This document shows, piece after piece, positions 1-14,876 of a DNA stretch of 16,539 nt. Position 1 is the first letter of the stretch; every line of letters starts with the position of its first letter. This stretch comes from an uncultured Bacteroidales bacterium (GTDB lineage: Bacteria; Bacteroidota; Bacteroidia; Bacteroidales; UBA7960). Location: assembly GCA_964387795.1 (NCBI GenBank), contig CAYLYP010000071.1, forward strand, positions 1 to 16,539, written 5' to 3'. The position numbers and the translations under genes were made by a program. The notes beneath the pieces are model-generated. The model saw only the letters and a program-made list of their open reading frames with translations, was not told the DNA's origin and ran no database searches.

Positions 1-1001
1 GGAGTAAGGTCAAAGCCTCCGGGGCAAGCCCTGTGCCGTTTAAGCCCTGTGTTTCTTAAAAGAATGCTGTTGACATCAATACCATATTTCTTTCCAAGCC
101 TGCGTGCTTCGAAGAAGCCTTTTGTATATGACGAATAAAAATCTTTTAAGTCTGTATTGTTTGAAGCAAGCTTTTCATCAATTACCGGGTCAAAGCTTAA
201 GCGTTCAAGGCCGGGGTATTTGGAAGCAATCTCTAAAACCATTTCCTCTTGTCTGAATACATTAGCCGGGGTGATAATGGTATTCAGCGATGGCTTGATA
301 TTGGAGGCTAAAAGACTGATGATGTTTGTGCTTACCAATGAATGGTTTTTGCGTTGCAGGTTTTGAATATCTTCAAGGATATCAAACGAAATATTGGCTT
401 TGACATTATTGTGTTTTATCGTATCAATAATTTCTTTTGAAATCACTGAGCCATTGGAAGCAAAAGAGAAATGGATTGTAAACCCAAACTTATTGGCTTT
501 TTGGGATGCATAATCCAGCGCATGTTTCATGATATCCCAGGAGAGAAAAGGTTCGCCTCCGCCCCCAAAAGAGATATATAAATTACGGTTTGAAGTTCTT
601 TTTGGGTCAATAAAAAAATCAATGGTTTTTTCAAGCTTGAAAATACTCAGCTCCTCACCAGTGTGGCCTTTGGATGCATAACAATAGCTACATGAGAAAT
701 TGCATTTTGAATTGGGCAATATTGTAAGGGAGCAGGTTTCATGAGGCGATTGGATAATGTCATTTGGGTATTGATCGGGTATAGCTGTTAAAGCCTGCAC
801 TGCTTCAATGATGTCCCCATTATTGTTGATTTGAGGGGCATGAATAGCCTGGTGCAGGGTGTTTGCTTCTTCAGCAGATGCTATCAGCATATAGCCATTC
901 AGGGGTGCATAAATTAAATATGAGCTTGCTTCCTCCTGAGGTGTTGTATTTTCAAGGGGGATGAAAAAAATGTCGGAAAGTTCATTCTGAAAAGGTTTCA
1001 A
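1..1001 (-). CDS. Radical SAM/SPASM-domain peptide-maturase paralog, 3' partial (C-terminus lies beyond window position 1); starts with TTG at 999-1001; not in the supplied ORF track
   Basis: Manual minus-strand translation is open from 1001 to 1. It reads MKPFQNELSDIFFIPLENTTPQEEASSYLIYAPLNGYML...CNFSCSYCYASKGH...FGGGGEPFLSWD...ACPGGFDLTP. The CX3CX2C radical SAM motif and a GGEP motif are present. The protein is colinear with, and clearly paralogous to, the 1019..2389 protein (MKPFQNELSDIFFIP aligns with MKSSFVLENADIYPIP). The only in-frame ATG is at codon 36, so TTG at 999-1001 is the best start, 17 nt after the upstream gene's stop. Confidence 0.75.
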   Translation of the reverse strand, partial: MKPFQNELSDIFFIPLENTTPQEEASSYLIYAPLNGYMLIASAEEANTLHQAIHAPQINNNGDIIEAVQALTAIPDQYPNDIIQSPHETCSLTILPNSKCNFSCSYCYASKGHTGEELSIFKLEKTIDFFIDPKRTSNRNLYISFGGGGEPFLSWDIMKHALDYASQKANKFGFTIHFSFASNGSVISKEIIDTIKHNNVKANISFDILEDIQNLQRKNHSLVSTNIISLLASNIKPSLNTIITPANVFRQEEMVLEIASKYPGLERLSFDPVIDEKLASNNTDLKDFYSSYTKGFFEARRLGKKYGIDVNSILLRNTGLKRHRACPGGFDLT

Positions 1002-1018
1002 GGTGGCAATAGATTTGG

Positions 1019-2389
1019 TTATTCACAAATCCCTGTTGCACTCAACACGCTTTCTTTTAAGCTAAGCCCGGATTCTTTGAGATACTGTTGGTTTAATTTT
1101 TCAAGGATCATCCTTTTTGTAAAGTTCCTTGTAAACTCACATATTTCTTCAAGCGCCTCAGGCTGATAAACATATTTCCAGGCCATACAGCCACCCCCGC
1201 ATTGCCATTTTGCAAAACAGTATTTACATTTTTCTTTGCTGTAAACATTATCATCTGCAAGGCTTTGAAACTGGAGTTCATCTATGATGAGTTTATAATC
1301 CTTGTCAAAAAAACCATAAATGCTCTCTGAAAAGCCAGGATCGGCAGGAGCAGTGATACGTGTACACATACTAATCAAGCCATCAGGTGTGAGTGCAAAT
1401 TCACCGGGACAAAAGCGTTCAATCAGAAGGTTGAAATTGCGTGAAGCAGAGCATTCTACATTTTTACCATGTTCAAGACCTATCTTCCATGCTTTGAAAA
1501 AATGATTGATATATTGATTATAGAAATCCCTGAAATCCTGAGAGTTTTTAAATGACTCAGCATCCGTAACTGCCTCTGTCATAATGTCCGTTACCTTAGG
1601 ATAAACGGAAATCACTTCCTGGATCATTTGTTCCTGTAACAGGACGTTTTCAGGGGTAATGGTAGCCCTTAGCTTTGGAATTATCCCATTATCTATTAAT
1701 TGTTTGATGTTTCGGGAGACAATCTGGTAACTTCCCCTTTGCATGTTTTGGATGCTTTCAAGGATCTCGAATGAAACAGAAACCGTAACATTGTATTTTT
1801 TTAATACACTAATGATTTCATCATTAATGACAGAACCATTGGTGACAAGTGAAAAATCAGTCTTAAAGCCATGCGCATCAGCTAAAGCCTGCCCATATTC
1901 GAGGATGAATTTTACATGATCCCATGACAGCATAGGTTCTCCCCCTCCTAATATTGCAATAAAAAGCATTGGCGCCTTGATCCTTTTAGAATCTATAAAA
2001 TGCTCCAAGGTTTTTTTAAGGATTTCCTTATCAATGATTTTTCCTGATCTTCCCTGAGCCGAATAGCAATAGCTACATGAGAAATTACAAACATTATTGG
2101 GAAGTATGGCAAGACGGGTAAAATCGTTTGGAGATACGAGCCTGGCTGCTTTTTTCTCAGGGTCTTTCTCTGATAAAGCAATCATTGCCCCATGTATTTC
2201 TTCATCGGTGCAAGACCCTGGTGCTTTTATCCAATCTTCCATCTTTTGCACATAATCGGGGCTAACAATCATTGCATTGTCTGACCAGGGAGCATACATT
2301 AATACATAATCCTCTTCAGGGGCATCAAACCAACTGCCAACAGGGATTGGATAAATATCAGCATTTTCTAATACAAAGGAAGATTTCAT
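1019..2389 (-). CDS. Radical SAM enzyme with C-terminal SPASM domain; predicted peptide-modifying (RiPP) maturase carrying a ~100-aa N-terminal extension
   Basis: 456-aa ORF. CNFSCSYC (CX3CX2C) lies at residues 101-108. The C-terminal CKYCFAKWQCGGGC fits the SPASM CX2CX5CX3C signature, and CPGEF...MC upstream supplies further auxiliary-cluster cysteines. The N-terminal 100 residues precede the radical SAM core. No sulfatase is nearby, so this is not a sulfatase-maturase context. Confidence 0.85.
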   Translation of the reverse strand: MKSSFVLENADIYPIPVGSWFDAPEEDYVLMYAPWSDNAMIVSPDYVQKMEDWIKAPGSCTDEEIHGAMIALSEKDPEKKAARLVSPNDFTRLAILPNNVCNFSCSYCYSAQGRSGKIIDKEILKKTLEHFIDSKRIKAPMLFIAILGGGEPMLSWDHVKFILEYGQALADAHGFKTDFSLVTNGSVINDEIISVLKKYNVTVSVSFEILESIQNMQRGSYQIVSRNIKQLIDNGIIPKLRATITPENVLLQEQMIQEVISVYPKVTDIMTEAVTDAESFKNSQDFRDFYNQYINHFFKAWKIGLEHGKNVECSASRNFNLLIERFCPGEFALTPDGLISMCTRITAPADPGFSESIYGFFDKDYKLIIDELQFQSLADDNVYSKEKCKYCFAKWQCGGGCMAWKYVYQPEALEEICEFTRNFTKRMILEKLNQQYLKESGLSLKESVLSATGICE

Positions 2390-2415
2390 AAATGGGGACT
2401 TAAAATCATTAAAAA

Positions 2416-2459
2416 AATGGCACCACTGAATTCAATCTTTTGTATTCAATGGCACCACT
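2416..2459. repeat. Tandem direct repeats AATGGCACCACT (2416-2427 and 2448-2459; minus-strand reading AGTGGTGCCATT) in the precursor-maturase intergenic region, ending in a T7 run on the transcribed strand
   Basis: Seen directly. Two 12-nt identical copies 32 nt apart, each with an adjacent TTCAAT/GAATTC-containing sequence. Confidence 0.5.
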
Positions 2460-2473
2460 TAACTTTTCACCTT

Positions 2474-2631
2474 GGCGAAATTAGTTATTGCATTTGCAGC
2501 CACCACAATGGTCACAGCATCCATAACTGTTTTTCTTGGTGTCTTTCACTTTTACAACTTTTGTAAGCATAACTCCTTTTTTTAGTGGTAATGGTTTACT
2601 TAAATTGCGACTCAGTTGGGCGAAATTAGTT
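2474..2631. repeat. Direct repeat TTGG(G)CGAAATTAGTT (2471-2486 and 2615-2631) bracketing the Cys-peptide gene
   Basis: Seen directly. The downstream copy (relative to minus-strand transcription) covers the last two codons and stop of the peptide gene. The second copy sits about 50 nt upstream of the peptide ATG. Confidence 0.5.
2481..2570 (-). CDS. Small Cys-rich peptide, candidate RiPP precursor (29 aa: MLTKVVKVKDTKKNSYGCCDHCGGCKCNN)
   Basis: ATG at 2568-2570 and TAA at 2481-2483 on the minus strand. The ORF is too short for the supplied track. It has a Lys-rich N-terminal half and five Cys within the last 12 residues (CCDHCGGCKCNN). It sits 91 nt upstream of, and co-oriented with, the two tandem radical SAM/SPASM genes. 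A purine-rich AAAAAAAGGAG precedes the ATG. The nearest in-frame upstream codon that could matter is a TAG stop, with no alternative ATG. Confidence 0.6.
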   Translation of the reverse strand: MLTKVVKVKDTKKNSYGCCDHCGGCKCNN

Positions 2632-2708
2632 TCTATCCAATGAATACTCTGCTAAGGTAAAAAAATATTTAAATAACCAAAAAGAATTATAATAAAAATC
2701 ACTTTTTT

Positions 2709-2840
2709 ATGAAAGATGCACCTGCAACAGATGCTTTGCAGCAATATAGCCGTATCAGTAAATTAAGAAAGATTTTAATGGGTGTTGAAGAAGTAATAAC
2801 CTCCATTAAATGTCCAGTAAGACAGGTATTTGTGTTTTGA
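2709..2840 (+). CDS. Hypothetical 43-aa ORF (MKDAPATDALQQYSRISKLRKILMGVEEVITSIKCPVRQVFVF), divergent from the Cys-peptide/rSAM operon
   Basis: ATG-initiated ORF found by manual translation. It lies in the ~350-nt gap between the precursor gene and the permease gene. No recognizable motif; may be spurious. Confidence 0.2.
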   Translation: MKDAPATDALQQYSRISKLRKILMGVEEVITSIKCPVRQVFVF

Positions 2841-2921: not shown

Positions 2922-3851
2922 ATGGAAAAGAAGCCGGCAAACACGTTTGTGTATTATTCATTGCTTTGTGTTTTGATGCTTATATGGGGCTCGTCCTTTA
3001 TATTAATGAAAAAAGGCCTGATCAGCTTTACAGGCTTTCAATTAGGGGCATTGCGCATCAGTATAAGTTTTTTTGTTTTATTGCCTTTTGCGGTCATGCG
3101 AATATCAAAGGTATGGCATCAACACCGTAAGAGCCTGCTTTATTTCTTTCTGGCAGGATTAATAGGTAATGGGATCCCTGCATTTTTGTTTGCCATTGCC
3201 CAGACACGGATTGATAGTCTGTTGGCAGGGATTTTAAATTCTTTGACTCCTTTGTTTACAGTGATTGTAGGTGTTTCCCTTTTTGGGGCAAAGACCCGCT
3301 GGGCTAATGTAGCAGGTGTCCTTACGGGCCTGGTAGGGGCTATTGGTTTGATGGTTGCAAGCAGTGGGCAAAGTTTTTCAATCAATTCTGCTTATGGCTT
3401 GTTGATTGTAGCTGCCACAGTGTTATATGCATTTAACCTGAATATCATCAAACGCTTTTTATCTGCCTTTGATGCAATCACTATAACATCAGTGGCATTT
3501 TTAAGTTTTGCAATACCTTTTGTAATCTATTTATTTACAACTGATTTTATAAGCCGAATGGAAACAATGCCCCAGGCCTGGAGTAGCTTTGGATATATTG
3601 TACTGCTTTCGGTACTTGGAACAGCGATGGCAGTGATATTGCAAAACTGGCTTATCAAACAGACCTCGCCTTTGTTTGTTGCAAGTGTGACCTATCTGAT
3701 TCCTATTGTGGCAATATTTTGGGGCATTATTGATGGGGAACGTTTTGAAGCAGTTTATATCTTTTGGGTGGGTCTGATATTGGCTGGTGTCTATCTGGCT
3801 AACAGGCCTGATGGGGGATTTATTAAAAAACGGCTGGGGAAAAAAGTGTAG
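2922..3851 (+). CDS. DMT-superfamily (EamA-like) permease, about 10 predicted TM helices
   Basis: The 309-aa protein is hydrophobic throughout with two similar halves. This is the typical duplicated EamA architecture (e.g. LMLIWGSSFILMKKGL..., ...ILNSLTPLFTVIVGVSLFGAK...). Confidence 0.7.
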   Translation: MEKKPANTFVYYSLLCVLMLIWGSSFILMKKGLISFTGFQLGALRISISFFVLLPFAVMRISKVWHQHRKSLLYFFLAGLIGNGIPAFLFAIAQTRIDSLLAGILNSLTPLFTVIVGVSLFGAKTRWANVAGVLTGLVGAIGLMVASSGQSFSINSAYGLLIVAATVLYAFNLNIIKRFLSAFDAITITSVAFLSFAIPFVIYLFTTDFISRMETMPQAWSSFGYIVLLSVLGTAMAVILQNWLIKQTSPLFVASVTYLIPIVAIFWGIIDGERFEAVYIFWVGLILAGVYLANRPDGGFIKKRLGKKV

Positions 3852-4026
3852 TTGATCTTTTTGTTTTTCTGATATATACTTTCCCGGAGATTTCTTGAAA
3901 GGCTGATAATGAAGGAGAATAAGTGGTTTGGTGACTTGAAAGGCATAATAGTTCGGAGAGCAGGTGATGTATTCGTTTTTTTGGAATAATAATGGATAAA
4001 AAAGTTTGAATTACGAAAATAATTTT

Positions 4027-4034
4027 TAACTTTG
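4027..4034 (+). promoter_or_regulatory. TAACTTTG -7-type promoter element upstream of rplU (TTTG at 4005-4008 is a possible -33)
   Basis: Exact match to the TAnnTTTG consensus, 42 nt upstream of the rplU ATG. A TTTG lies 18 nt further upstream. Confidence 0.4.
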
Positions 4035-4076
4035 CAGCCCTAATTAAAAGAGTTCATATTTAAAACCTGGTAAACG

Positions 4077-4391
4077 ATGTATGCAATTGTTGACATAGCA
4101 GGCAGGCAATTCAAAGTAAGCAAAGACCAGAAGATTTTTGTTAACCGTTTGGACGCTGAAGAAGGCTCACAAGTGAGTTTTGATAAAGTGTATTTATTAG
4201 CAAACGAAAGCAAAATCGACGTAGGCGCCCCTGTTGTAACTGGTGCACAAGTTAAAGCCAAAGTGCTTTCGCACCCCAAAGCTGACAAAGTAACAATCTT
4301 CAAAAAGAAGAGAAGAAAGTCTTATCAAAAAAGGACTGGTCACCGTCAGCCTTTAACCCAGATTTTGATTGAAGAAATCATTTTGGGTTAA
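4077..4391 (+). CDS. rplU: 50S ribosomal protein L21
   Basis: MYAIVDIAGRQFKVSKDQKIFVNRLDAEEG... is a characteristic L21 N-terminus and length (104 aa). rpmA follows immediately. Confidence 0.95.
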   Translation: MYAIVDIAGRQFKVSKDQKIFVNRLDAEEGSQVSFDKVYLLANESKIDVGAPVVTGAQVKAKVLSHPKADKVTIFKKKRRKSYQKRTGHRQPLTQILIEEIILG

Positions 4392-4431
4392 TTAATGAAC
4401 CGTTTTTTGTTATAAAGAAAATTGAAATAAC

Positions 4432-4698
4432 ATGGCACACAAGAAAGGAGTCGGTAGTTCCAAGAACGGTAGGGAATCGCACAGTAAACGACTTGGTATT
4501 AAAATATTTGGCGGGCAGGCAGCCATTGCCGGAAATATTATTGTTAGACAAAGGGGTACCGTTCACAACCCTGGCGTTAATGTTGGTATCGGCAAAGACC
4601 ACACCTTATTTGCTACTTCAGATGGCATCGTGGTGTTCAGAAAAGGCAAAAACGATAAGTCTTTTGTTTCAGTGCTTCCAAAAGAAGCTCAGGCATAA
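4432..4698 (+). CDS. rpmA: 50S ribosomal protein L27
   Basis: [29 protein letters not shown]... is a canonical L27 N-terminus; 88 aa. Confidence 0.95.
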
Positions 4699-4733
4699 GA
4701 AATCCAACAAGCCTTCGGGCATTAAAAGCATAA

Positions 4734-4771
4734 AAATCTCCCGCCAGTTAAGGTTGGGAGATTTTTGTTTA
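4734..4771 (+). terminator. Rho-independent terminator after rpmA
   Basis: AAAATCTCCC-(gccagttaaggtt)-GGGAGATTTT stem-loop followed by TGTTT, about 35 nt after the rpmA stop. Confidence 0.55.
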
Positions 4772-4782
4772 AAAGAATTCCT

Positions 4783-4790
4783 AACTTTGT
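4783..4790 (+). promoter_or_regulatory. TAACTTTG -7-type element upstream of serS, the same octamer as upstream of rplU
   Basis: Exact TAnnTTTG match 50 nt upstream of the serS ATG. The nearest upstream TTTG (4765-4768) is only 14 nt away, which is short spacing. Confidence 0.3.
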
Positions 4791-4839
4791 AAAGGAAAAA
4801 TAAATTCATCATATTAATGTTCAATAAACCTGTTTTCAA

Positions 4840-6111
4840 ATGCTTCAAATTAGCTTAATCCGCGAGAACCCCCAAGAGGTGATTGAAAGGCTCAAAATAA
4901 AAAATTTTGATGCAGCCCCACTGGTAAATCAACTTCTTGAAACTGATAAGCAACGTCGTGAGACCCAAAAATCCCTTGATGACCTTTTGGCTGAATCCAA
5001 CCAACTGGCAAAAGAAATTGGTCAGCTTTTTAAATCGGGAAAGACTTCGGAAGCCAATGAGAAGAAAGAAAGAACATTTGTGCTAAAACAACAGGTTAAG
5101 GAATTGGAAGACAAGTTGAATGTGCTTAAGGAAAGCTTCGACAATGCCCTTGTGTTGCTTCCCAATATCCCCCATTCATCTGTTCCGGCTGGCAGGACAG
5201 CTGAAGATAATGAGATTGTCCTTCAGGATGGTAGTATTCCTGTATTATTCGAAGGTGCCGTGCCTCATTGGGAACTTACTTCAAAGTATGATATCATAGA
5301 TTTTGAACTGGGCACCAAGATTACCGGTGCAGGTTTCCCTGTTTATAAGGGCAAAGGGGCAAAGCTTCAACGCGCATTGATAAATTTCTTTTTGGATTGT
5401 GCCGAGCAGGCAGGATATACCGAGTATCAGCCCCCTTTGATGGTGAATGAGGCTTCGGCTTATGGTACAGGCCAATTACCGGATAAAGAAGGGCAGATGT
5501 ACCATGCAACAATTGATAACCTGTATTTGATTCCCACTGCTGAAGTTCCTGTAACAAATATTTTCCGTGATGTAATATTACGCGAACAGGATTTACCTGT
5601 TAAGAGCACCGCTTACTCAGCTTGTTTCAGGCGTGAAGCAGGTTCTTATGGAAAAGATGTCAGGGGACTTAACAGGCTCCACCAGTTTGATAAAGTAGAA
5701 ATTGTTCAGGTTACACGCCCTGATAAATCCTATGAGACCCTTGAAGTTATGAGGGATTATGTGGCAGGGATACTTCGCAAACTTGAACTTCCATTTCGCA
5801 TTGTAAGACTTTGTGGGGGTGATATGAGCTTCGCTTCCGCACTGACTTATGATATGGAGGTCTTTTCTGCTGCACAAAAACGTTGGCTTGAAGTGAGCTC
5901 TGTATCAAACTTTGAATCATTCCAATCAAACAGGATGAAGCTTCGCATTAAAGGCAATGATGGAAAAACAGAACTTGCACATACCCTTAATGGTAGTGCC
6001 CTGGCTTTGCCCCGTATCGTAGCCTCTATCCTTGAAAACAATCAAACCCCCGAAGGTATACGTATTCCTAAAGCATTGGTGAAATTCACCGGCTTTGAAT
6101 ACATCAATTAA
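4840..6111 (+). CDS. serS: Seryl-tRNA synthetase (class II)
   Basis: 423 aa. The N-terminal coiled-coil arm (MLQISLIRENPQEV...LKELEDKLN) and class-II catalytic motifs (...YSACFRREAGSYGKDVRGLNRLHQFDKVE..., ...GSALALPRIVASILENNQ) match SerRS. Confidence 0.95.
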   Translation: MLQISLIRENPQEVIERLKIKNFDAAPLVNQLLETDKQRRETQKSLDDLLAESNQLAKEIGQLFKSGKTSEANEKKERTFVLKQQVKELEDKLNVLKESFDNALVLLPNIPHSSVPAGRTAEDNEIVLQDGSIPVLFEGAVPHWELTSKYDIIDFELGTKITGAGFPVYKGKGAKLQRALINFFLDCAEQAGYTEYQPPLMVNEASAYGTGQLPDKEGQMYHATIDNLYLIPTAEVPVTNIFRDVILREQDLPVKSTAYSACFRREAGSYGKDVRGLNRLHQFDKVEIVQVTRPDKSYETLEVMRDYVAGILRKLELPFRIVRLCGGDMSFASALTYDMEVFSAAQKRWLEVSSVSNFESFQSNRMKLRIKGNDGKTELAHTLNGSALALPRIVASILENNQTPEGIRIPKALVKFTGFEYIN

Positions 6112-6120
6112 CATAAAAAT

Positions 6121-6178
6121 ACCCGTTGTGATTTTGATATCGCTTTCTATGACTCAAATCACAACGGGTTTGCTTTTA
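6121..6178 (+). terminator. Stem-loop terminator after serS
   Basis: ACCCGTTGTGATTT ... AAATCACAACGGGT is a 14-bp perfect stem with a 22-nt loop, followed by TTGCTTTTAT. It begins 10 nt after the serS stop. Confidence 0.55.
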
Positions 6179-6227
6179 TATAGTTTAAACATTCTTTTCC
6201 CTTTTGACTTTTTAACTCATTTGTAAT

Positions 6228-6791
6228 ATGAAAACATCCTTCTGCCTCGTTTCATCATCTATTGTGTTTGTTTCTTTTTTCTTATTTTCCTGTAGTTCCC
6301 AACTTGAAAAAACAGATGCACAAAGAGTTGATAGCCTTATTACTGTTTTGGATTCTGCCTATTTTTATTCCTCTCAGATTGATACCATTGAGGTAAATAA
6401 GGTCTTTGATGATTTTAAAATTCATCTTGATGATATGCAAAAGTATATGTTTGATAAACCGGATAAAGAAGAAGATGCTCAGCTTATTACCCGTTATAGC
6501 CAAATAAGAAAACCTTTAAGGGACTACAAGAAAAATGCAAAACAAATACGAAAAAGCATTGATGAACAAAAACAACAATTGCTTGCTCTGAAAAAAGAAA
6601 GACTTAAAGGCATTATCAATGATTCGGATTTTGTGATTTTTTTCCATCAGGAAAAAGATCTTGCTAAGCAAAATTTTTTAGAAGCACACAATTTACACCA
6701 AAGGACCAAAGAGTCATTAAATACCTATTATGAACTCAATGAACGGATGATTGAGTATATGGATAGTGTGATTCAAAATAGTAAACATTAA
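6228..6791 (+). CDS. Hypothetical lipoprotein (signal peptide plus lipobox Cys), K/E/D-rich
   Basis: The N-terminus MKTSFCLVSSSIVFVSFFLFSCSS has a hydrophobic signal followed by LFSC, a lipobox-like Cys. No recognizable catalytic motif. Confidence 0.55.
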   Translation: MKTSFCLVSSSIVFVSFFLFSCSSQLEKTDAQRVDSLITVLDSAYFYSSQIDTIEVNKVFDDFKIHLDDMQKYMFDKPDKEEDAQLITRYSQIRKPLRDYKKNAKQIRKSIDEQKQQLLALKKERLKGIINDSDFVIFFHQEKDLAKQNFLEAHNLHQRTKESLNTYYELNERMIEYMDSVIQNSKH

Positions 6792-6863
6792 TCACCGGGA
6801 AACGTTTGCGTTCATGGCAAAGTGATTTGTTTTTTTTCTTAATTTTTATTATTCTGAACGCCT

Positions 6864-8696
6864 ATGAAACCTGCTATTAAACAAATCCTGCTCTTTGGGG
6901 CCTTTATGCTTGGGCTTTATTGTAATATGCCGGGACAGAACCGCAGCACTGAAGAAATGCTTGCTGCGCAGTATCTTCAGAATGGCGAGTATGATAAAGC
7001 TGTTATTCTTTATGAAGAGCTTTTTGAAAAAAAACAGGATCCTGTTAATTATAATGCGCTCCTTAATTGTTATATTGGCCTTAATGATTATGAAAGGGCA
7101 GAACGCTTTATAAAGAAACTGATTAAACAAAACCCGGGTAACTATAGATATGAGGTTGACCTGGGTTGGGTATATGAACGTTCGGGCGATATAAATAAGG
7201 CCGAGAAACAATTCAAGGGTTTAATAAATAAATTGCCTGCCGAACCCAACAGGGTCATTGATTTATCAAATGCATTTCGCATCAGGGGCAAAATAGATTA
7301 CCAGTTGCAGACATTTCTAAAAGGACGTAGCCTGTTGAAAAACAGTATGCCTTTCAATGTTCAGATTGCCCAGATTTATGAGTTTCAGGGGAATTACCCT
7401 GAGATGATGAATGAGTATATTGATTTTGTTGATCTTTCCGGGAATAACATTGATATGGTGCAGGGCATTTTGCAAAGTGCTTTGCAAAATGACCCCGAAG
7501 GAGGAAAAGCTGAAGCTTTACGCCAGGTATTATTGTTTCGCACCCAAAAGAATGCATCCAATACATTATATGTTGAAATGCTTTTATGGCTTTCATTACA
7601 ACAAAAGGATTTTGAGACTGCACTCATTCAGGCTAAAGCTCTTGACAGGCGCCTTGGCAGGGATGGATATCTTGTTTTTTCTGTTGGTTCCCTTAGCCTT
7701 TCAAACCAGAATTTTGATGTTGCCATTAAGGCATTTAATATTATTGTTGAAAAGGGTATTGATAACCCTTATTACACCGATGGCCGCATTGGCTTACTTA
7801 ATGCCAATTTCCAAAAGTTAAACTCTTTATATGAGCGCGATAAAGCTGCATTTGTAAAACTAGAGGAAGATTACAATGCCACACTTGATGAACTTGGTTA
7901 TCATAGTGGCACGATTGGCCTTGTAAGGAATCTTGCAAGGATTAAAGCAGTTTATCTGGATAAGGTTGATGAATCTATTGAATTACTCAATAAGGCAATA
8001 AAACTACCCGGGGCTACACCGCGGATGCAGGCTGAATGTAAAATTGAACTGGCTGATGTTTACCTGATCCAGGGGGAGGTATGGGAAGCTGCACTTCTTT
8101 ATGGGCAGGTTGATAAAGCTTTCAAGGAAGACCCACTTGGTCATGAAGCAAAATTTAAAAATGCCCGTTTGTCTTTTTATATCGGTGAATTTGAATGGGC
8201 CAAAGCGCAACTGGATGTCCTTAAGGCTGCTACCAGTAAACTTATTGCAAATGATGCCATGGAACTCAGCCTCCTGATACAGGACCATACTTCATATAAT
8301 GGGGAACCCGAAGCTCTTAAAATATTTGCCAGGGCTGATATGCTTCAGGTCATGATGCTCTATGATAAAGCATTGGTAACCCTGGATTCCATCCCTGCCA
8401 AATATCCTTTTATTGACCTTAATGCCAATGTACTGTTCCGTAAGGCTGAGATTGCATTAAAAACTGGGGACTATAAAAAAGCTGACGAATGTCTTGAAGC
8501 TTTATTACAAAAACATCCTTCAAGTGTCCTGGCTGACCTGTCCTTATTTAAACGTGCCGAAATTAATGAAACACTTCTGGACAATAAGCCCTTGGCAATG
8601 GAACTCTATCAAAAACTTATGACTGATTTCCCGGGAAGTCTATATGTGACCCAGGCAAGGATCCGCTTCAGGAGCCTTAGGGGTGATGTATTATAA
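6864..8696 (+). CDS. Secreted tetratricopeptide-repeat (TPR) protein, function unknown
   Basis: An N-terminal signal peptide (MKPAIKQILLFGAFMLGLYC). The protein carries several repeated ~34-residue helical stretches with the W/LG/Y-x-Y...A...F...A...P pattern typical of TPR units (e.g. AAQYLQNGEYDKAVILYEELFEKKQDPVNYNALLNCYIGLNDYERAERFIKKLIKQNPGN). Confidence 0.65.
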   Translation: MKPAIKQILLFGAFMLGLYCNMPGQNRSTEEMLAAQYLQNGEYDKAVILYEELFEKKQDPVNYNALLNCYIGLNDYERAERFIKKLIKQNPGNYRYEVDLGWVYERSGDINKAEKQFKGLINKLPAEPNRVIDLSNAFRIRGKIDYQLQTFLKGRSLLKNSMPFNVQIAQIYEFQGNYPEMMNEYIDFVDLSGNNIDMVQGILQSALQNDPEGGKAEALRQVLLFRTQKNASNTLYVEMLLWLSLQQKDFETALIQAKALDRRLGRDGYLVFSVGSLSLSNQNFDVAIKAFNIIVEKGIDNPYYTDGRIGLLNANFQKLNSLYERDKAAFVKLEEDYNATLDELGYHSGTIGLVRNLARIKAVYLDKVDESIELLNKAIKLPGATPRMQAECKIELADVYLIQGEVWEAALLYGQVDKAFKEDPLGHEAKFKNARLSFYIGEFEWAKAQLDVLKAATSKLIANDAMELSLLIQDHTSYNGEPEALKIFARADMLQVMMLYDKALVTLDSIPAKYPFIDLNANVLFRKAEIALKTGDYKKADECLEALLQKHPSSVLADLSLFKRAEINETLLDNKPLAMELYQKLMTDFPGSLYVTQARIRFRSLRGDVL

Positions 8697-8786
8697 TTCT
8701 TGCCTATTGGAAATGATTTATTATCAAAGAAGTAAATCCATTAATCATTAACCTTATTTTAAATCCTTAAGGATACATCAATCTTT

Positions 8787-8807
8787 TCCATTTTCAGGTG
8801 AAAATGA
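8787..8807. terminator. Weak AT-rich hairpin (TCATTTTC-aggt-GAAAATGA) in the convergent gap between the TPR gene and the thioesterase gene; possible bidirectional terminator
   Basis: An 8-bp perfect inverted repeat with a 4-nt loop, sitting between two convergent stop codons. Low GC, so low confidence. Confidence 0.25.
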
Positions 8808-8866
8808 TATTATGCCAAAACTGATATGGTTTATGATGCGTGCTTAATTGAAATGCCAAAGTGGTG

Positions 8867-9616
8867 TCAGTCTTTTTCCCAATAACTTGCAAGGATACAT
8901 GATTCATTGTCCTGCTTATCAAGGATGCGATGTTTGCATAATAAACCGTTTTCATTCGTTTCCAATTGAACCTGAGATGTGATTTTCATCCCATAATGGT
9001 TTTCTTTTTTAAACATCACCTGGATACGCTTCAATGTATATGCCTCATGAACTTCAACAGGGATTGCTTCCATGGCCCATTCAACATATTTTACATTATT
9101 GACATGTTTGTTGAAATCAATATCGGAATACCTTACCTGAAATTCTTTTTGATATTGACATTCTTTAAATTCCGGTATTGGTTCAAAATCTTCTTTGGTG
9201 TCATTATTAAGGGGCAAGCCATAAGCCAGTGTGATCTCATCATGGATTTTTGTCGGTCTTTTGTTTTCTGTATTGACAAATAACCATGAAGAGTGGGCGG
9301 TGATTAATTCATTGTTCTGCTGATCAAAAACATGAAAATAACGGTATCCAAAGAACCTGAAAAAACCGGAAGGCTGGGTAACTACTTTAATGTTTTGAAG
9401 AAACTGAGGCGGATTATGCAATCGGATATCAAACTGGTAAAGCATCCAGGCAACTTTGTGTTTCGTATAATAATCAAGCCCGACCTGTTTTGATTCGCTT
9501 TGAAGCAATGCCATTTCTTCAAAAAAACAAAGCAGGGAACTGATGTTTAGCTTCTGGTCCTTGCCTGTTTCATAATAATGAATAGAATAGTCTTTCTCGA
9601 ATGAAGTGCCTCTCAT
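8867..9616 (-). CDS. Acyl-ACP thioesterase (hotdog-fold, FatA/B-like bacterial family)
   Basis: 249 aa. The N-terminus ...FEKDYSIHYYETGKDQKLNISSLLCFFEEMALLQSESKQVG... and the second half ...QVRYSDIDFNKHVNNVKYVEWAMEAIP... resemble the double hotdog acyl-ACP thioesterase family. Recognized by eye only. Confidence 0.6.
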   Translation of the reverse strand: MRGTSFEKDYSIHYYETGKDQKLNISSLLCFFEEMALLQSESKQVGLDYYTKHKVAWMLYQFDIRLHNPPQFLQNIKVVTQPSGFFRFFGYRYFHVFDQQNNELITAHSSWLFVNTENKRPTKIHDEITLAYGLPLNNDTKEDFEPIPEFKECQYQKEFQVRYSDIDFNKHVNNVKYVEWAMEAIPVEVHEAYTLKRIQVMFKKENHYGMKITSQVQLETNENGLLCKHRILDKQDNESCILASYWEKD

Positions 9617-9795
9617 AGAACATGATTTAATCGAACAAATATGGATAAAAAAAACGAGGATGACATATAATTTCTGATTTTTTGGCGAATAAACATTAAG
9701 GAATTCATGCTTTTCATTTGTTAAGGATATAATCCAATATGGAAATAATTCAACTTGTATCAGGGTGATTATTTCGCTGGTAATATTTAAAGGCT

Positions 9796-9803
9796 TACAT
9801 TTG
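9796..9803 (+). promoter_or_regulatory. TACATTTG -7-type element about 70 nt upstream of rsmA
   Basis: Exact TAnnTTTG match. No clear -33 TTTG. Confidence 0.25.
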
Positions 9804-9873
9804 TGGATGTAATAAAAAGATTGCTGGAAGGGAATCTGTTAGTTAAACAATAAACAAGAAAAAAGCGTAAAGA

Positions 9874-10656
9874 ATGTCAGATTTTGTAAGGGCCAAAAAA
9901 CACCTGGGGCAGCATTTTCTTAGAGATGAGGGTATTGCCATGAAAACTGCCGAAAGCCTAAGTTGGCATCAGGGCTATAAGCAATTGCTGGAAATAGGGC
10001 CTGGCACAGGTATGCTGACAAAATACCTTATTAAAATCCCTGATGTCAGCTTTTATGTGATTGAGGTAGATACAGAAAGCATCAGCTATTTAAATGAAAA
10101 TTTCCCAGTCCTTCATGGCCGGATAATTGAAGAGGATTTTTTGCGTTTTAACCCAGAGACAATCTTTCAGGGACCTTTTGGTATTGTCGGTAATTTCCCT
10201 TACAATATCTCGACCCAGATTTTGTTCAGGGTAATGGAATACAGGAACCAAATCCCTGAGGTGGTAGGGATGTTTCAAAAAGAAGTAGCAGAGCGCTTAG
10301 CCGAAAAACCTGGTTCGAAGACTTATGGCATCACTAGTGTATTGCTCCAGGCTTTTTATGATATTGAGTATTTGTTTACTGTTGGTGAAGGGGTTTTTGT
10401 CCCTCCCCCAAAAGTTAAGTCTGCCGTGATTCGTTTAAAACGGAACAGCAGAGAACATTTGGATTGTAATGAAAAAATGTTTTTTACTGTAGTGAAAACA
10501 GCATTCAATCAAAGACGTAAGACTTTAAGAAATTCATTGAAACCGTTATTGAAAAGCGGTCATGGCATTTCACCACAACTTCTTGAGCTTCGCCCTGAAA
10601 GGCTTAGTGTTGAGGATTTTATTGGATTAACTTTGTTAATTGAACAACAACAATAA
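9874..10656 (+). CDS. rsmA: 16S rRNA (adenine1518/1519-N6)-dimethyltransferase RsmA/KsgA
   Basis: KKHLGQHFL near the N-terminus, the SAM-binding [11 protein letters not shown], the NFPYNIST catalytic motif, and a 260-aa length. Confidence 0.9.
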
Positions 10657-10668
10657 TCGACAACAACA

Positions 10669-11190
10669 ATGAGAACCTTAATATTCGTTTTTTTGTTAAT
10701 TTGTACCCTTACGGGGATACATGCCCAGGATGTTAACCGGGTTATCAGGGATGAAACGATAGATAAAGATGTTTTGTATGGCCTGTGTAATGTGGAAGGG
10801 TTAAAAGGTGAAGTGTTTGGTGAAGCTTTTCAGAGCGAATACCAGTCCTACGAGCCCCAATCGGATGTTTTGCTCAGGTTAAGGATTATACCTGATATTG
10901 ATGAACTGGAAGTAATCATTGTTTTTGGGCCATGGTGCGGTGATTCAAAGCGTGAAGTCCCGAGGTTTGTCAAACTGGCAGAACAGATAGGTATTCAGGA
11001 ATCTCAGATAAAAATGTATGCCACAAACAGGGAGAAGAAATGTGGGGAAGCTATCATCGACAGCTTGTTAACCGAATTGGTGCCAACATTTTATGTTTAT
11101 AGGGGAGGGAAGTTCATTGGAAGCATTGTAGAGTTCCCCATCAACAGTCTGGAAGAAGATCTATTGGCTATTTTGTTAAAAGATGAATAG
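10669..11190 (+). CDS. Secreted thioredoxin-fold protein with a CxxS (WCGDS) variant active site
   Basis: Signal peptide MRTLIFVFLLICTLTGIHAQ. ...IVFGPWCGDSKREVPRFVKLA... looks like a thioredoxin-fold active-site region with Ser in place of the second Cys. The start lies 12 nt after the rsmA stop. Confidence 0.5.
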   Translation: MRTLIFVFLLICTLTGIHAQDVNRVIRDETIDKDVLYGLCNVEGLKGEVFGEAFQSEYQSYEPQSDVLLRLRIIPDIDELEVIIVFGPWCGDSKREVPRFVKLAEQIGIQESQIKMYATNREKKCGEAIIDSLLTELVPTFYVYRGGKFIGSIVEFPINSLEEDLLAILLKDE

Positions 11191-11244
11191 CCCTTTTCCA
11201 AGGATATTTTCAAAAATTGACAACAAATTATTTTCAGGTAAAAG

Positions 11245-12381
11245 ATGTCAGATAAGGAAAGCAATCAAAACGAAATACCTTCGGCTCTAAAGGTGAATAA
11301 AGGGATACCCCAGCCCCCTTCAATAAACGAGGCTGCTTTGGAGCATTTGCGTAAGCACAAGAGGAAGACCTTTTCGTTGGATGAATATGTGAGTGCAATA
11401 CTTAGCGGCAACAGGGTAATGCTAAGTAGGGCTATTACCTTGATCGAAAGCCAGTTGAATGAGGATTTTATATTGTCACAACAAATTGTGGAGCAGTGCA
11501 TCCCTCATTCAGGAAAATCATTGCGTGTTGGGATTACCGGTGTCCCTGGTGTTGGGAAAAGCACTTTTATTGAAGCATTTGGGACTTTCCTTACCTCAAT
11601 GGGCCATAAGGTTGCTGTATTGGCTGTTGACCCTAGCAGTGAGATAAGTAAAGGAAGTATCTTGGGTGATAAAACAAGGATGGAGAAGCTGGGCACTGAC
11701 CCAAACGCCTTTGTAAGACCTTCCCCTTCAGCAGGATCTTTAGGCGGAGTTGCCAGAAAAACCAGGGAAATCATTTTGCTTTGCGAAGCATCTGGCTTTG
11801 ATGTGATACTTGTTGAAACAGTTGGTGTTGGACAATCTGAAACGGCTGTCCATTCAATGGTTGACTTTTTTCTGCTGCTCATGCTAAGTGGGGCAGGGGA
11901 TGAGCTTCAGGGAATTAAACGCGGGATTATTGAAATGTGCGATGGTATGGTTATTAACAAAGCTGATGGTGACAATATCAATAAAGCCAAGGCTGCACGT
12001 ATTCAATACCAGAATGCACTTCATCTGTTTCCGCCTTCTTCTTCCGGCTGGGCTCCAAAGGTTGAAACCTGCTCATCAATCAGTCGGGATGGGATAGATA
12101 AAGTTTGGGAAATGATTTCTGAATATAAATCCCAGACCCAATCCAATGGTTTTTTTAATTTCAGACGCAATGAACAAAAGAAATACCATTTGTTTGAAAC
12201 CATCAACCAGGCCCTGACTGATAATTTTTATCAGCACCCCGACGTGTCTGCTTTGATGCCTAAGGTCGAGCTTGACCTTATTGCCAATAGAATTACCTCT
12301 TATAAAGCGGCAGCTAATTTGCTTGAGGCTTTTTATAAGGCTTTAGATAAAATAAATAAAAAGACCAATCCTTATGACTAA
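11245..12381 (+). CDS. meaB: MeaB/ArgK-family G3E GTPase (methylmalonyl-CoA-mutase-associated chaperone-like)
   Basis: P-loop GITGVPGVGKST. ...LAVDPSS...GSILGDKTRM..., ...ETVGVGQSE... and NKADGDN are the ordered motifs of the MeaB/ArgK family; 378 aa. Confidence 0.75.
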   Translation: MSDKESNQNEIPSALKVNKGIPQPPSINEAALEHLRKHKRKTFSLDEYVSAILSGNRVMLSRAITLIESQLNEDFILSQQIVEQCIPHSGKSLRVGITGVPGVGKSTFIEAFGTFLTSMGHKVAVLAVDPSSEISKGSILGDKTRMEKLGTDPNAFVRPSPSAGSLGGVARKTREIILLCEASGFDVILVETVGVGQSETAVHSMVDFFLLLMLSGAGDELQGIKRGIIEMCDGMVINKADGDNINKAKAARIQYQNALHLFPPSSSGWAPKVETCSSISRDGIDKVWEMISEYKSQTQSNGFFNFRRNEQKKYHLFETINQALTDNFYQHPDVSALMPKVELDLIANRITSYKAAANLLEAFYKALDKINKKTNPYD

Positions 12382-13207
12382 TATCAGACTGATTGCAGTG
12401 TCCCTTTTGTTTTTAATGTTATTCCCTTTTTCTGCCAAACCCATTGGAAAGAAAAAGGAAGCCCCCTTATACAGGTTTGAATATGGGATTTCGCTTGGCG
12501 GGTATTTTGCCAACCGAAACACTGCTTCTTACTATGATGGTAGTGGTGATGAAGTTACCGATAATTCTATTTCAAGAGTGCTTTTACTAGACTATAATTA
12601 CCAGAGGTTAAGGAATGTATTGGGAACTGATTTTATATTATATGAACTACCAGGAGCTATGCGATATAATCCAGCTTTTAAGGTAGGCTTTTTTGGAACT
12701 GTAAATATTACAAATAAAACCGGGATTATTGCTGAGTGCAATTACGCAAAACTGAAGGTAGAAGATGGTTTTACAATCAAACTTGATCAGTATAGCGGGA
12801 CTTCTGAACCCGTTTTAAAAGTCGGGTCTATAAGGGGCACTGAGGAAAGAATTGATATCCGTCTGGGCATCACACATGTGTTTAGAAAAAAAGATGCCTA
12901 TATAAACCCTTTTATTGAAATAGGTGGTAATCTTGTAGATACTAAGGTTGTTAACAACAAGATTAATGTTGAAGGCATCGAAATGAGCATCCTTAGTACT
13001 TCAAATCAATATTATCAGGTGGAGGATTATGGTATCGGTTATGGGGGCTACGTCACCGCAGGCCTTGTTTTTGATGTAAGTGAATCATTCGCATTCAGGT
13101 TGGGAGGCAGCGCCAATGTATGCAAGATTAATCTTGGTGAAAATAAAGATATGAAACCCCAATACAGCGTTTTTATTAGGATTATGCTTAATCCTGTTGT
13201 GAGTTAG
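12374..13207 (+). CDS. Hypothetical secreted protein, possibly an outer-membrane beta-barrel
   Basis: Signal peptide MTNIRLIAVSLLFLMLFPFSA. The sequence has alternating hydrophobic/polar beta-like segments and is Gly/Tyr-rich. The start overlaps the meaB stop (ATGACTAA), and the 3' end overlaps the convergent acyltransferase gene by 20 nt. Confidence 0.45.
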   Translation: MTNIRLIAVSLLFLMLFPFSAKPIGKKKEAPLYRFEYGISLGGYFANRNTASYYDGSGDEVTDNSISRVLLLDYNYQRLRNVLGTDFILYELPGAMRYNPAFKVGFFGTVNITNKTGIIAECNYAKLKVEDGFTIKLDQYSGTSEPVLKVGSIRGTEERIDIRLGITHVFRKKDAYINPFIEIGGNLVDTKVVNNKINVEGIEMSILSTSNQYYQVEDYGIGYGGYVTAGLVFDVSESFAFRLGGSANVCKINLGENKDMKPQYSVFIRIMLNPVVS

Positions 13208-13805
13208 GTTTTTGTTTATTAAGCTTGTCCTTTTCCCTTTGTTCCTTATACATTGGGGATAGGTAATAATCTTCTGGGAATTTTGCTGTAAAATTATTTT
13301 GGATATAGAAATCCTGAATTGTTTCAATATCTTTTTCATAATCACCTGTAGGATAAAAAAGCATTCCCAGTCCGGTTTCCTTTTTCTTATAGTCAATATA
13401 GCCTGTATAGATTGGAATATTGGCTTTAACAGCAATAAAATAGAACCCTTTTTTCCAATGCTTTGTAAGTTTGCGGGTGCCTTCAGGGGTAATAACAAGG
13501 TACATCCTTTCTTTTTCAGCAAACATATCGGTGATTTTTTTAATAGCATTCTGACTGTTAAGCCTGTCAACCGGAACGCCTCCCCACCATTTAAGGAAAA
13601 TCCCCAAAGGAAAGTAAAACGATTCTTTTTTTATCATTATATTGGGTTTAATCCCTTTAATAAAAAACGAAAGCCTGCCCCAGATAAAGTCCTTGGTGCT
13701 TGTATGCGGAGCTGAAAGGATGATCGCTTTTTTGATATCTTTTGGAAGTACGGCAGTTGTCTTCCAGCCTGCCAGACGCATTATAATCCACGCAATATAT
13801 TTCAT
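13188..13805 (-). CDS. 1-acyl-sn-glycerol-3-phosphate (lysophospholipid) acyltransferase, PlsC-like
   Basis: ...ILSAPHTSTKDFIW... carries the HX4D acyltransferase motif, and ...VITPEGTRK... carries the PEGTR motif; 205 aa. Confidence 0.65.
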   Translation of the reverse strand: MKYIAWIIMRLAGWKTTAVLPKDIKKAIILSAPHTSTKDFIWGRLSFFIKGIKPNIMIKKESFYFPLGIFLKWWGGVPVDRLNSQNAIKKITDMFAEKERMYLVITPEGTRKLTKHWKKGFYFIAVKANIPIYTGYIDYKKKETGLGMLFYPTGDYEKDIETIQDFYIQNNFTAKFPEDYYLSPMYKEQREKDKLNKQKPNSQQD

Positions 13806-14103
13806 TATGTAATTTGATTTTCTGGTTAAAGATTTGCCATTGCCATCTTTTGCCCAAACTTGTTATGCAAAATTCCGGTTTTGACATTTTAAATAAATTA
13901 CAAAATTAGGCTGTTTTTATTAACATAAATACAGATGGGATGCAATTTTTTTATTTATGACCCATGTATCGCAATGATACCAGCGTTTTATCCCGTGCAT
14001 TGTGAAATATAGAAAATAGAAGATGTTGTAATAACAAATTTGATTGAATTGTCCTTAGGCTTTTTGAATAATGTCGGTTAGGGGGGCTTATTTTTACCGG
14101 AAC

Positions 14104-14121
14104 AAATGCATTTTTGCATTT
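14104..14121. promoter_or_regulatory. Perfect palindrome AAATGCA-tttt-TGCATTT in the 470-nt intergenic region upstream of the NfeD/flotillin operon
   Basis: A 7-bp perfect inverted repeat with a 4-nt spacer, about 155 nt upstream of the NfeD-like gene start. Candidate operator for a dimeric regulator. Confidence 0.3.
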
Positions 14122-14276
14122 ATAAGACCATAGAAGGAACACAAATACATGCCTGAAGTCTAAAATCCGTCATTTAATAATTAATTATCGTCTTTCATTG
14201 AAGTTTTAAATTGTCGTGAATTATATTTTGCATAAATTCGCTTTAAACAAATGAACAAAAACTAAAATAAAAAACA

Positions 14277-14846
14277 ATGGAAACATGGTGGAGTTCGCTT
14301 GAACTTTTTCAAAAAGTAGTATGGCTTATCGCAATACCATCCAGCTTGATATTTATTATCCAGATGATTGCAACATTTGTTGGAATGGATTCAGATGGCG
14401 GTATGGTTGATAGTGCTGATATGGATGGAAGTATTGGGGATTTCCCATTTCAATTATTCACCTTCAGAAATTTTGTAAACTTCTTCCTGGGCTTTGGTTG
14501 GACTGGAATACTGTTTTATAACACTATTGAATCAAGGTTCTGGCTGGTGTTTTTAGCCACAGTAATTGGCCTGGGATTGGTGATAGGGGTAATGGCAATC
14601 TTCTATTTCTTAAGTAGGATGGTACAATCCGGAAACATTGATGTGAAAAGTGCCGTTGGGCTTCATGCCAATGTCTATTTAACAATCCCTTCAGAACGAA
14701 AGGGACAGGGAAAAATTCAAATCAGCATTCAAAATGCTGTCAGGGAATATGATGCAATCACTGATGGGGAAGAAATACGAACTGGTGGCTCTGTTATCGT
14801 GAAAGACATCATCAATTCCAATCTTGTTTTGGTAGAAAAACTCTAA
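14277..14846 (+). CDS. NfeD-like membrane protein (short YuaF-type partner of flotillin)
   Basis: 189 aa. N-terminal TM segments (VVWLIAIPSSLIFIIQMIATFVG; FLATVIGLGLVIGVMAIFYFL) are followed by a C-terminal beta-rich soluble domain (GQGKIQISIQNAVREYDAITDGEEIRTGGSVIVKDI) resembling the NfeD OB-fold. It lies directly upstream of an SPFH/flotillin gene, which is the conserved nfeD-floT arrangement. Confidence 0.6.
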   Translation: METWWSSLELFQKVVWLIAIPSSLIFIIQMIATFVGMDSDGGMVDSADMDGSIGDFPFQLFTFRNFVNFFLGFGWTGILFYNTIESRFWLVFLATVIGLGLVIGVMAIFYFLSRMVQSGNIDVKSAVGLHANVYLTIPSERKGQGKIQISIQNAVREYDAITDGEEIRTGGSVIVKDIINSNLVLVEKL

Positions 14847-14876
14847 AACCTAATTATAAATTCAAATTCATACAAT

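Follow-up and report, generated by a model that had tools for sequence, protein, structure and literature searches.

Background

The closest described counterpart of the enzymes reported here is CteB of Clostridium thermocellum (structure 5WGG, model TIGR03974), a thioether (ranthipeptide) maturase which acts on a peptide of the SCIFF family ('six cysteines in forty-five residues'). The PapB family of ranthipeptide maturases (NF047865) likewise comprises radical S-adenosyl-L-methionine (SAM) enzymes with a SPASM domain that mature a cysteine-rich RiPP, and the PapB substrate contains repeated Cys-X3-Asp units. The RiPP cluster of thuricin CD encodes two radical SAM maturases, TrnC and TrnD. 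Two such enzymes, RumMC1 and RumMC2, are also encoded by the ruminococcin C cluster (PMC6779426).

The window analysed here, that is the whole stretch of 16,539 nucleotides from an uncultured Bacteroidales bacterium, contains the beginning of an operon with a short cysteine-rich precursor peptide and several maturases of this type. Its left edge interrupts the second maturase gene, here called B, which has no ATG at its 5' end. The analysis established the domain content of B and the structure of the operon around it. In our reading B is very probably a functional gene of 434 codons starting with TTG, the second of five paralogous radical SAM/SPASM maturases located behind a five-cysteine precursor of 29 amino acids, and it is probably initiated independently. 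The features of the locus are given below; labels such as L001 denote contigs and loci used for comparison.

1 to 1001, minus strand: 5' part of gene B (codons 1-333 of 434), radical SAM/SPASM peptide maturase, interrupted by the window edge
681 to 704, minus strand: CX3CX2C radical SAM cluster motif of B (C100, C104 and C107)
888 to 890, minus strand: internal in-frame ATG, codon 38 of B, the wrong start in several public gene calls
891 to 998, minus strand: codons 2-37 of B, a conserved N-terminal stretch with predicted strands b1 (12-15) and b2 (27-32), Y31 and P33, lost with an ATG start
999 to 1001, minus strand: TTG start codon of B, preceded by an A at -3; the TTG is shared without change by L001-L004, L069 and L070
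1002 to 1018, minus strand: spacer of 17 nt from the stop of gene A to the start of gene B, CCAAATCTATTGCCACC, without a Shine-Dalgarno-like run
1019 to 2389, minus strand: gene A, first radical SAM/SPASM maturase, 456 aa, ATG start, TAA stop at 1021-1019
1023 to 1025, minus strand: in-frame TGA bounding the frame of B upstream
2416 to 2459, minus strand: strong hairpin whose U-run extends to about 2407, in the interval separating the precursor gene from gene A (z = -4.85; none of 200 shuffles folds as well)
2481 to 2570, minus strand: precursor peptide gene, 29 aa with five cysteines, MLTKVVKVKDTKKNSYGCCDHCGGCKCNN, near-invariant in distant clusters
L001:5703-6257: protein of 184 aa between genes D and E, conserved in the clusters and without a Pfam or NCBIfam match

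The operon and its maturases

The region beyond the window edge was recovered from contig L001 (Logan SRR8925774), which is equal to window positions 1-2662 with no mismatch in 2,662 nt and continues for 7.1 kb outside the window. Contigs L069 and L070 are also identical to the window wherever they overlap it. The leftward extension and translation proposed in an earlier note on this DNA could thus be carried out, and gave the complete gene B with 434 codons (L001:1662-2966). The order of the operon is precursor, hairpin with U-run, A, B, C, D, the 184-aa protein, E and, as last gene, a short-chain dehydrogenase/reductase (SDR). The same note had spoken of two maturases; A and B are both present, but the operon holds five paralogous radical SAM genes and is cut by the window.

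The proteins A to E are mutually 37-40% identical. For A and B, which had been proposed to be paralogues, the BLASTP alignment is gapless over 330 residues with 39% identity (E = 4e-79) and leaves the proposal standing. Moreover, each position in the operon is the reciprocal best match of the same position across the Bacteroidales clusters (45-59% identity), which indicates that the duplications are old and that every copy has been retained. A fusion of A and B by frameshift or readthrough was considered and rejected, since A is complete and has a SPASM domain of its own, the TGA at 1025-1023 closes B upstream, and A and B are read in different frames.

The 184-aa protein gave no matches in the Pfam scan nor in the NCBIfam scan at E <= 10. 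A search of PDB sequences returned a SAM synthase as sole match (E = 0.023), which is weak and was treated as noise. In MAG GCA_028698995.1 the gene in the D position (L006:12676-14583) encodes 635 aa and no separate small gene is called there, which suggests a fusion of D with the 184-aa protein and hence a functional partnership of the two.

Gene E (L001:6254-7639) has been called with a GTG start overlapping the preceding gene, and L002 has an ATG at this place. An ATG common to all lineages lies 10-11 codons downstream (MEFEFL...) and fits the N-terminus of the family better; the Logan call for L069, of 451 aa, starts there. E is thereby the second gene of the operon with an ambiguous start. 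The remainder of the window (2922-16319) encodes housekeeping functions apparently unrelated to the operon, namely an EamA transporter, L21, L27, seryl-tRNA synthetase, a TPR protein, an acyl-ACP thioesterase, RsmA/KsgA, a thioredoxin-like protein, a MeaB GTPase, an acyltransferase and an SPFH/Band 7 protein. The EamA gene adjoins the operon only in the closest relatives.

Enzyme class of B

The motifs which the earlier note had read in B (CNFSCSYCYAS, FGGGGEPF and ACPGGFDLT) are all found in the 333 residues translated from the window. B belongs to the radical SAM superfamily, scoring 43.1 bits on Pfam PF04055 against a gathering threshold of 29.5, and its GGGEP (GGE) motif is formed by residues 147-151. 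The full sequence from L001 has the SPASM cysteines C326-X14-C341, C387-X2-C390-X5-C396-X3-C400 and C416, in agreement with the seven-cysteine motif CX9-15GX4C...CX2CX5CX3C...C, of which only C326 is encoded within the window. The Pfam SPASM model gave no match to B at E <= 0.1.

All five radical SAM proteins find their best or nearly best matches among the models for PapB, SCIFF, nif11 or QhpD maturases. On the SCIFF maturase model TIGR03974 the window part of B scores 66 bits and A, C, D and E score 82-94 bits, against a cutoff of 425. On the PapB family model NF047865 (cutoff 340) the window part of B scores 84 bits, its second-best NCBIfam match, and the other four reach 101-119 bits, their best match. 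As every NCBIfam maturase model stays far below its cutoff, the chemistry of B can be given as an analogy and not as an assignment. CteB is the best match of the family profile among solved structures (5WGG, E = 8e-35), with an alignment covering the SPASM region to the C-terminus, and it is also the top Foldseek match for B (E = 8e-14, 322 aligned columns).

By homology with CteB, PapB and QhpD, B would bind a [4Fe-4S] cluster through C100, C104 and C107, and two auxiliary clusters through the seven-cysteine SPASM motif. The enzyme would then cleave SAM to a 5'-deoxyadenosyl radical, which would abstract hydrogen from the core of the precursor. By analogy with the same three enzymes, the most likely product would be a thioether cross-link from cysteine to carbon in the core CCDHCGGCKCNN. 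Each of the five conserved orthogroups would perform its own step.

Translation start of B

The minus-strand frame of B, described earlier as open from 1001 to 1, is in fact open from 1022 to 1. No ATG, GTG or TTG occurs between the TGA at 1025-1023 and the TTG at 1001-999, so that this TTG is the first canonical start, and the TGA closes the frame, which makes a longer open reading frame impossible. The gap of 17 nt to the stop of the upstream gene was confirmed, the spacer lying at 1002-1018 and the TAA of gene A at 1021-1019. The first in-frame ATG is codon 38 (890-888), and a start there would cost B 37 residues rather than the 35 counted before.

The TTG, the upstream TGA, the length of the 17-nt spacer and the indel-free open frame are all kept in L002 (86% amino acid identity) and in L003 and L004 (81%). 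Substitutions in codons 1-37, counted by codon position, were 1, 4 and 8; 5, 7 and 15; and 4, 5 and 17, with a bias towards the third position. The dN/dS of these codons is 0.19-0.29, and that of the entire gene 0.17-0.23. Judged from this pattern of substitution, codons 1-37 are under purifying selection. On a family HMM built without the lineage of the window the full B protein scores 572.1 bits and the ATG-truncated form 545.6 bits; the 37 residues are thus worth 26 bits, whereas 20 shuffles of them reached at most 553.0 bits (a gain of at most 7 bits). In an alignment of 67 homologues Y31 and P33 are the only invariant residues ahead of the radical SAM motif and L34 is nearly invariant, and all three lie inside the 37 N-terminal residues of B. 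Across 174 distinct radical SAM genes of the family in the fetched loci the start ATG is found most commonly 30 codons upstream of the Y-x-P-L motif, and the TTG of B is placed exactly there. The position-2 orthologues in L005 and L006 have an ATG at the residue equivalent to the TTG. Homologues therefore begin at the position of the TTG and not at the equivalent of the internal ATG, a possibility which the earlier note had raised.

The TTG start of B is limited to one shallow lineage. About 6 of the 174 family genes need a non-ATG start, and outside this lineage only about three do so. Three family members apparently have no ATG upstream of the N-terminal motif (L015 near 3170, L023 near 1383 and L066 near 10049); they would need TTG or GTG, and the gene calls may be truncated there too.

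The exact 434-aa protein, M-initiated from TTG, is already present in GenBank as NLF42747.1 (MAG Bacteroidales bacterium, GCA_012514955.1), and the identical protein is found in one Logan gene call; the DNA underlying both entries has the TTG and matches the window without any difference. In contrast, four public gene calls (P0001, P0002, P0003 and P0079) start at the internal ATG and have 397 aa, covering 89% of the query. The view of the earlier note that B is invisible to calling by ATG only goes too far: the gene itself is still detected, with a shortened 5' end as in these 397-aa calls.

The choice made in these four calls, together with the fact that ATG is by far the commoner start codon, would speak for a 397-aa enzyme truly beginning at 890-888, with the 37 upstream codons as an untranslated spacer. 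These codons, however, are open and indel-free in three lineages and under purifying selection, they carry the invariant Y31 and P33, and their contribution to the family match is far above that of shuffled residues. Such a start would moreover drop the predicted strands b1 and b2 of the N-terminal domain and leave a gap of 128 nt, anomalous beside the -8 to +17 nt of the remaining junctions in the operon, and it is very improbable. ATT start codons are very rare. Initiation ahead of the TTG at a near-cognate codon such as the ATT at 1010-1008, which would add three residues, is allowed by the frame being open back to 1022, but this rarity weighs against it, PGAP picked the TTG, and the TTG gives a length typical of the family, with 9 residues before the I-F/Y motif compared with about 10 in homologues. 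We regard it as scarcely credible. Conservation, selection, the family HMM, the starts of the orthologues and the GenBank entry all agree with the proposal that B starts at TTG, and from these comparisons and the predicted fold the TTG at 1001-999 is well supported as the translation start.

This start is not new; it is a routine point of annotation which is right in GenBank already. The case is like the ordinary mis-annotation of the 5' end of non-ATG genes, one caller having taken a downstream ATG and PGAP and one Logan call the TTG, and nothing sets B apart in this respect. In practice, several public entries of B are 37 residues short and miss most of the sheet of the N-terminal domain. 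Cloning from the 397-aa entries would probably give an inactive enzyme.

N-terminal domain of B

The AlphaFold2 model of the window-encoded part of B (mean pLDDT 87.8) has strands spanning residues 12-15, 27-32 and 37-42, then helices spanning 43-54 and 62-72, ahead of the radical SAM barrel. Modelling residues 1-92 on their own recovered the same elements. The first 90 or so residues are thus predicted to form a small domain of three strands and two to three helices. As the strands 12-15 and 27-32 precede codon 38, an ATG start would remove two of the three strands. In the models the domain sits where CteB and similar enzymes carry a domain for binding the leader peptide (an RRE in CteB), and it probably holds the precursor peptide. 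An RRE, which is a PqqD-like winged helix, is recognized by a three-strand sheet with three helices and by resemblance in fold to RREs already described; the isolated N-terminal domain of B, when searched by fold, gave no significant match.

Expression of A and B

The ribosomes of Bacteroidia ignore Shine-Dalgarno sequences, and an A at position -3 favours initiation there (PMC6847099). The RNA structure around the start of B is nothing unusual (z = -0.35). TTG is generally a weaker initiator than ATG. The earlier note had suggested that A and B are translationally coupled and likely co-expressed in stoichiometric amounts, that is, that ribosomes ending at the stop of A reinitiate 17 nt downstream at B and fix a ratio of 1:1. 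The spacer is indeed short, with 16 of its 17 nt identical among the lineages, and the operon is tightly packed. Nevertheless, in the reporter experiments of Huber et al. 2023 in E. coli and Haloferax, intergenic gaps of about 20 nt almost abolished termination-reinitiation, and the genes of a coupled pair typically share 4 or 1 nt (PMC10666635). The stops and starts of C and D, and of the 184-aa gene and E, overlap by 4 nt, but those of A and B do not; their gap of 17 nt falls outside the range of coupled genes (sharing 4 or 1 nt, or almost abutting) as known from E. coli and Haloferax. Coupling of A and B is therefore not supported. Nor is their stoichiometric co-expression, as the weaker start codon and the highest dN/dS among the maturases, both belonging to B, argue against a fixed 1:1 output. 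Reinitiation from A is in our view unlikely.

The same two properties of B could also indicate a paralogue on its way out, with an ancestral ATG decayed to TTG, low expression and little need for the product. B is the least constrained and fastest-evolving of the five maturases (dN/dS 0.17-0.23, compared with 0.08-0.18 in the other four), the rate of evolution in its 37 N-terminal codons is about double that in the remaining codons, and its orthologues elsewhere have ATG. In addition B has seven cysteines in the SPASM region and lacks the extra upstream cysteine present in A (C313), C, D and E. However, a seven-cysteine SPASM domain is the normal state in CteB (PMC10352776). The dN/dS is far below 1 and does not suggest a pseudogene, the catalytic motifs are all intact, and the TTG has been kept across a dS of about 0.3-0.5. 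Position-2 orthologues, moreover, are kept in every five-gene cluster examined, and decay of B thus appears quite improbable. We favour B as a functional gene whose translation probably begins on its own, at an unstructured site with A at -3, rather than by reinitiation coupled to A.

Precursor peptide and surrounding elements

The precursor consists of the leader MLTKVVKVKDTKKNSYG followed by the cysteine-rich core. The peptide is identical in L002 and L003, and nearly so in clusters of Dysgonomonas, Lentimicrobium and further Bacteroidales, where the enzymes share only 40-50% identity, following the pattern M[LI]T.[VI][VF]KVK.[TV]KK...[GA]CCD[HQ]CGGC[KQ]CNN. The same peptide accompanies homologous sets of radical SAM genes in at least 12 distinct loci. 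This is the layout of a RiPP operon, in which a short precursor gene lies beside modifying enzymes, co-oriented and co-conserved with them. The NCBIfam scan of the precursor at E <= 10 gave no matches.

The hairpin at 2416-2459 is placed directly 3' of the precursor stop and has a stem of 16+3 bp (AGUGGUGCCAUUGAAU...AUUCAGUGGUGCCAUU). It was found by folding; the scan for consensus terminators missed it on account of its limits on stem and loop. Hairpins with a U-run, unrelated in sequence, are found at the same place in L003, L005, L006, L007 and L011. The element looks like a terminator or attenuator, and its recurrence looks like that of a conserved attenuator which sets the ratio of precursor to enzyme transcripts.

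About 150 nt upstream of the precursor ATG (2571-2720, minus strand) are almost invariant among the window, L002 and L003. The entire alignment of 345 columns has a mean column identity of 95%, whereas the silent sites of the adjacent radical SAM genes are far more divergent (dS 0.25-0.57). Such conservation could reflect constraint on a promoter or 5' leader element in 2571-2720. Rfam gave no matches in the whole window at gathering thresholds, nor in 2380-2930 at E <= 1. The 12-mer ACTAATTTCGCC occurs twice on the minus strand, at 2619-2630, some 50 nt 5' of the precursor ATG, and at 2474-2485, overlapping its stop codon.

Distribution and interpretation of the system

The cluster of Lentimicrobium saccharophilum has six radical SAM genes with a five-cysteine precursor, and that of a Victivallales MAG (L055) has seven, with the five-cysteine variant precursor MVTPVVKVKTSSANASACCDNCSGCVCKD. 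Homologues of the maturases are also found in MAGs of Akkermansia, Victivallales, Lentisphaeria and Kiritimatiellae from animal guts, usually as two or three tandem copies (L037, L041, L044, L046, L047, L049, L055, L062, L066 and L068). Among GTDB species representatives the best match is a Dysgonomonas MAG with 52% identity. A search of the literature on clusters of several radical SAM genes in Bacteroidales and Lentimicrobium and on cysteine-rich precursors found no description of this operon, and the five-maturase operon appears to be undescribed.

The five orthogroups and the five cysteines of the core point to a single step for each enzyme. A strict pairing of one enzyme with one cysteine is weakened by the clusters with four, six and seven enzymes, since those with six (Lentimicrobium) and seven (Victivallales) also have a five-cysteine precursor. 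A tentative reading of the whole locus, possible but speculative, is that of an undescribed RiPP-like system in which five radical SAM/SPASM orthogroups successively modify the core CCD[HQ]CGGC[KQ]CNN into a cofactor-like or metal-binding product, the TTG of B being one of the controls of enzyme ratio. It would be a system of Bacteroidales of the gut, rumen and anaerobic digesters, with a variant form in Victivallales, in which anciently diverged orthogroups would act in fixed order on one almost invariant core of 12 residues. In the simplest form one enzyme would serve each cysteine, giving a compact and heavily cross-linked peptide which would then be processed by the 184-aa protein and the SDR. 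The ratios of the enzymes would be set by the TTG of B, by the hairpin after the precursor gene and by the overlapping stop/start pairs. An extremely conserved peptide that has no dedicated exporter would be better explained as a cofactor-like or metal-binding product than as an antibiotic. The operon of five maturases around a five-cysteine peptide is more interesting than the start codon, and would make a good target for expression in a heterologous host and for structural work.

Comparison with known systems

B shares with CteB a layout in three parts, in which an N-terminal domain (peptide-binding in CteB and probably in B) precedes a radical SAM core containing CX3CX2C and a seven-cysteine SPASM domain, although the two are only about 19-20% identical. 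They also differ in their setting: CteB is one enzyme acting on a SCIFF peptide, whereas five paralogous enzymes accompany a peptide of 29 aa with five cysteines in the operon described here. The PapB family is similar in architecture and in the kind of substrate, but the scores obtained here are far below 340 and the precursor lacks the repeated Cys-X3-Asp units of the PapB substrate. As in the present operon, the clusters for thuricin CD and ruminococcin C have more than one paralogous radical SAM/SPASM maturase beside small precursor genes. Those clusters, however, have two enzymes and usually several precursors, whereas the system described here has four to seven enzymes, one near-invariant precursor, a protein of 184 aa and an SDR.
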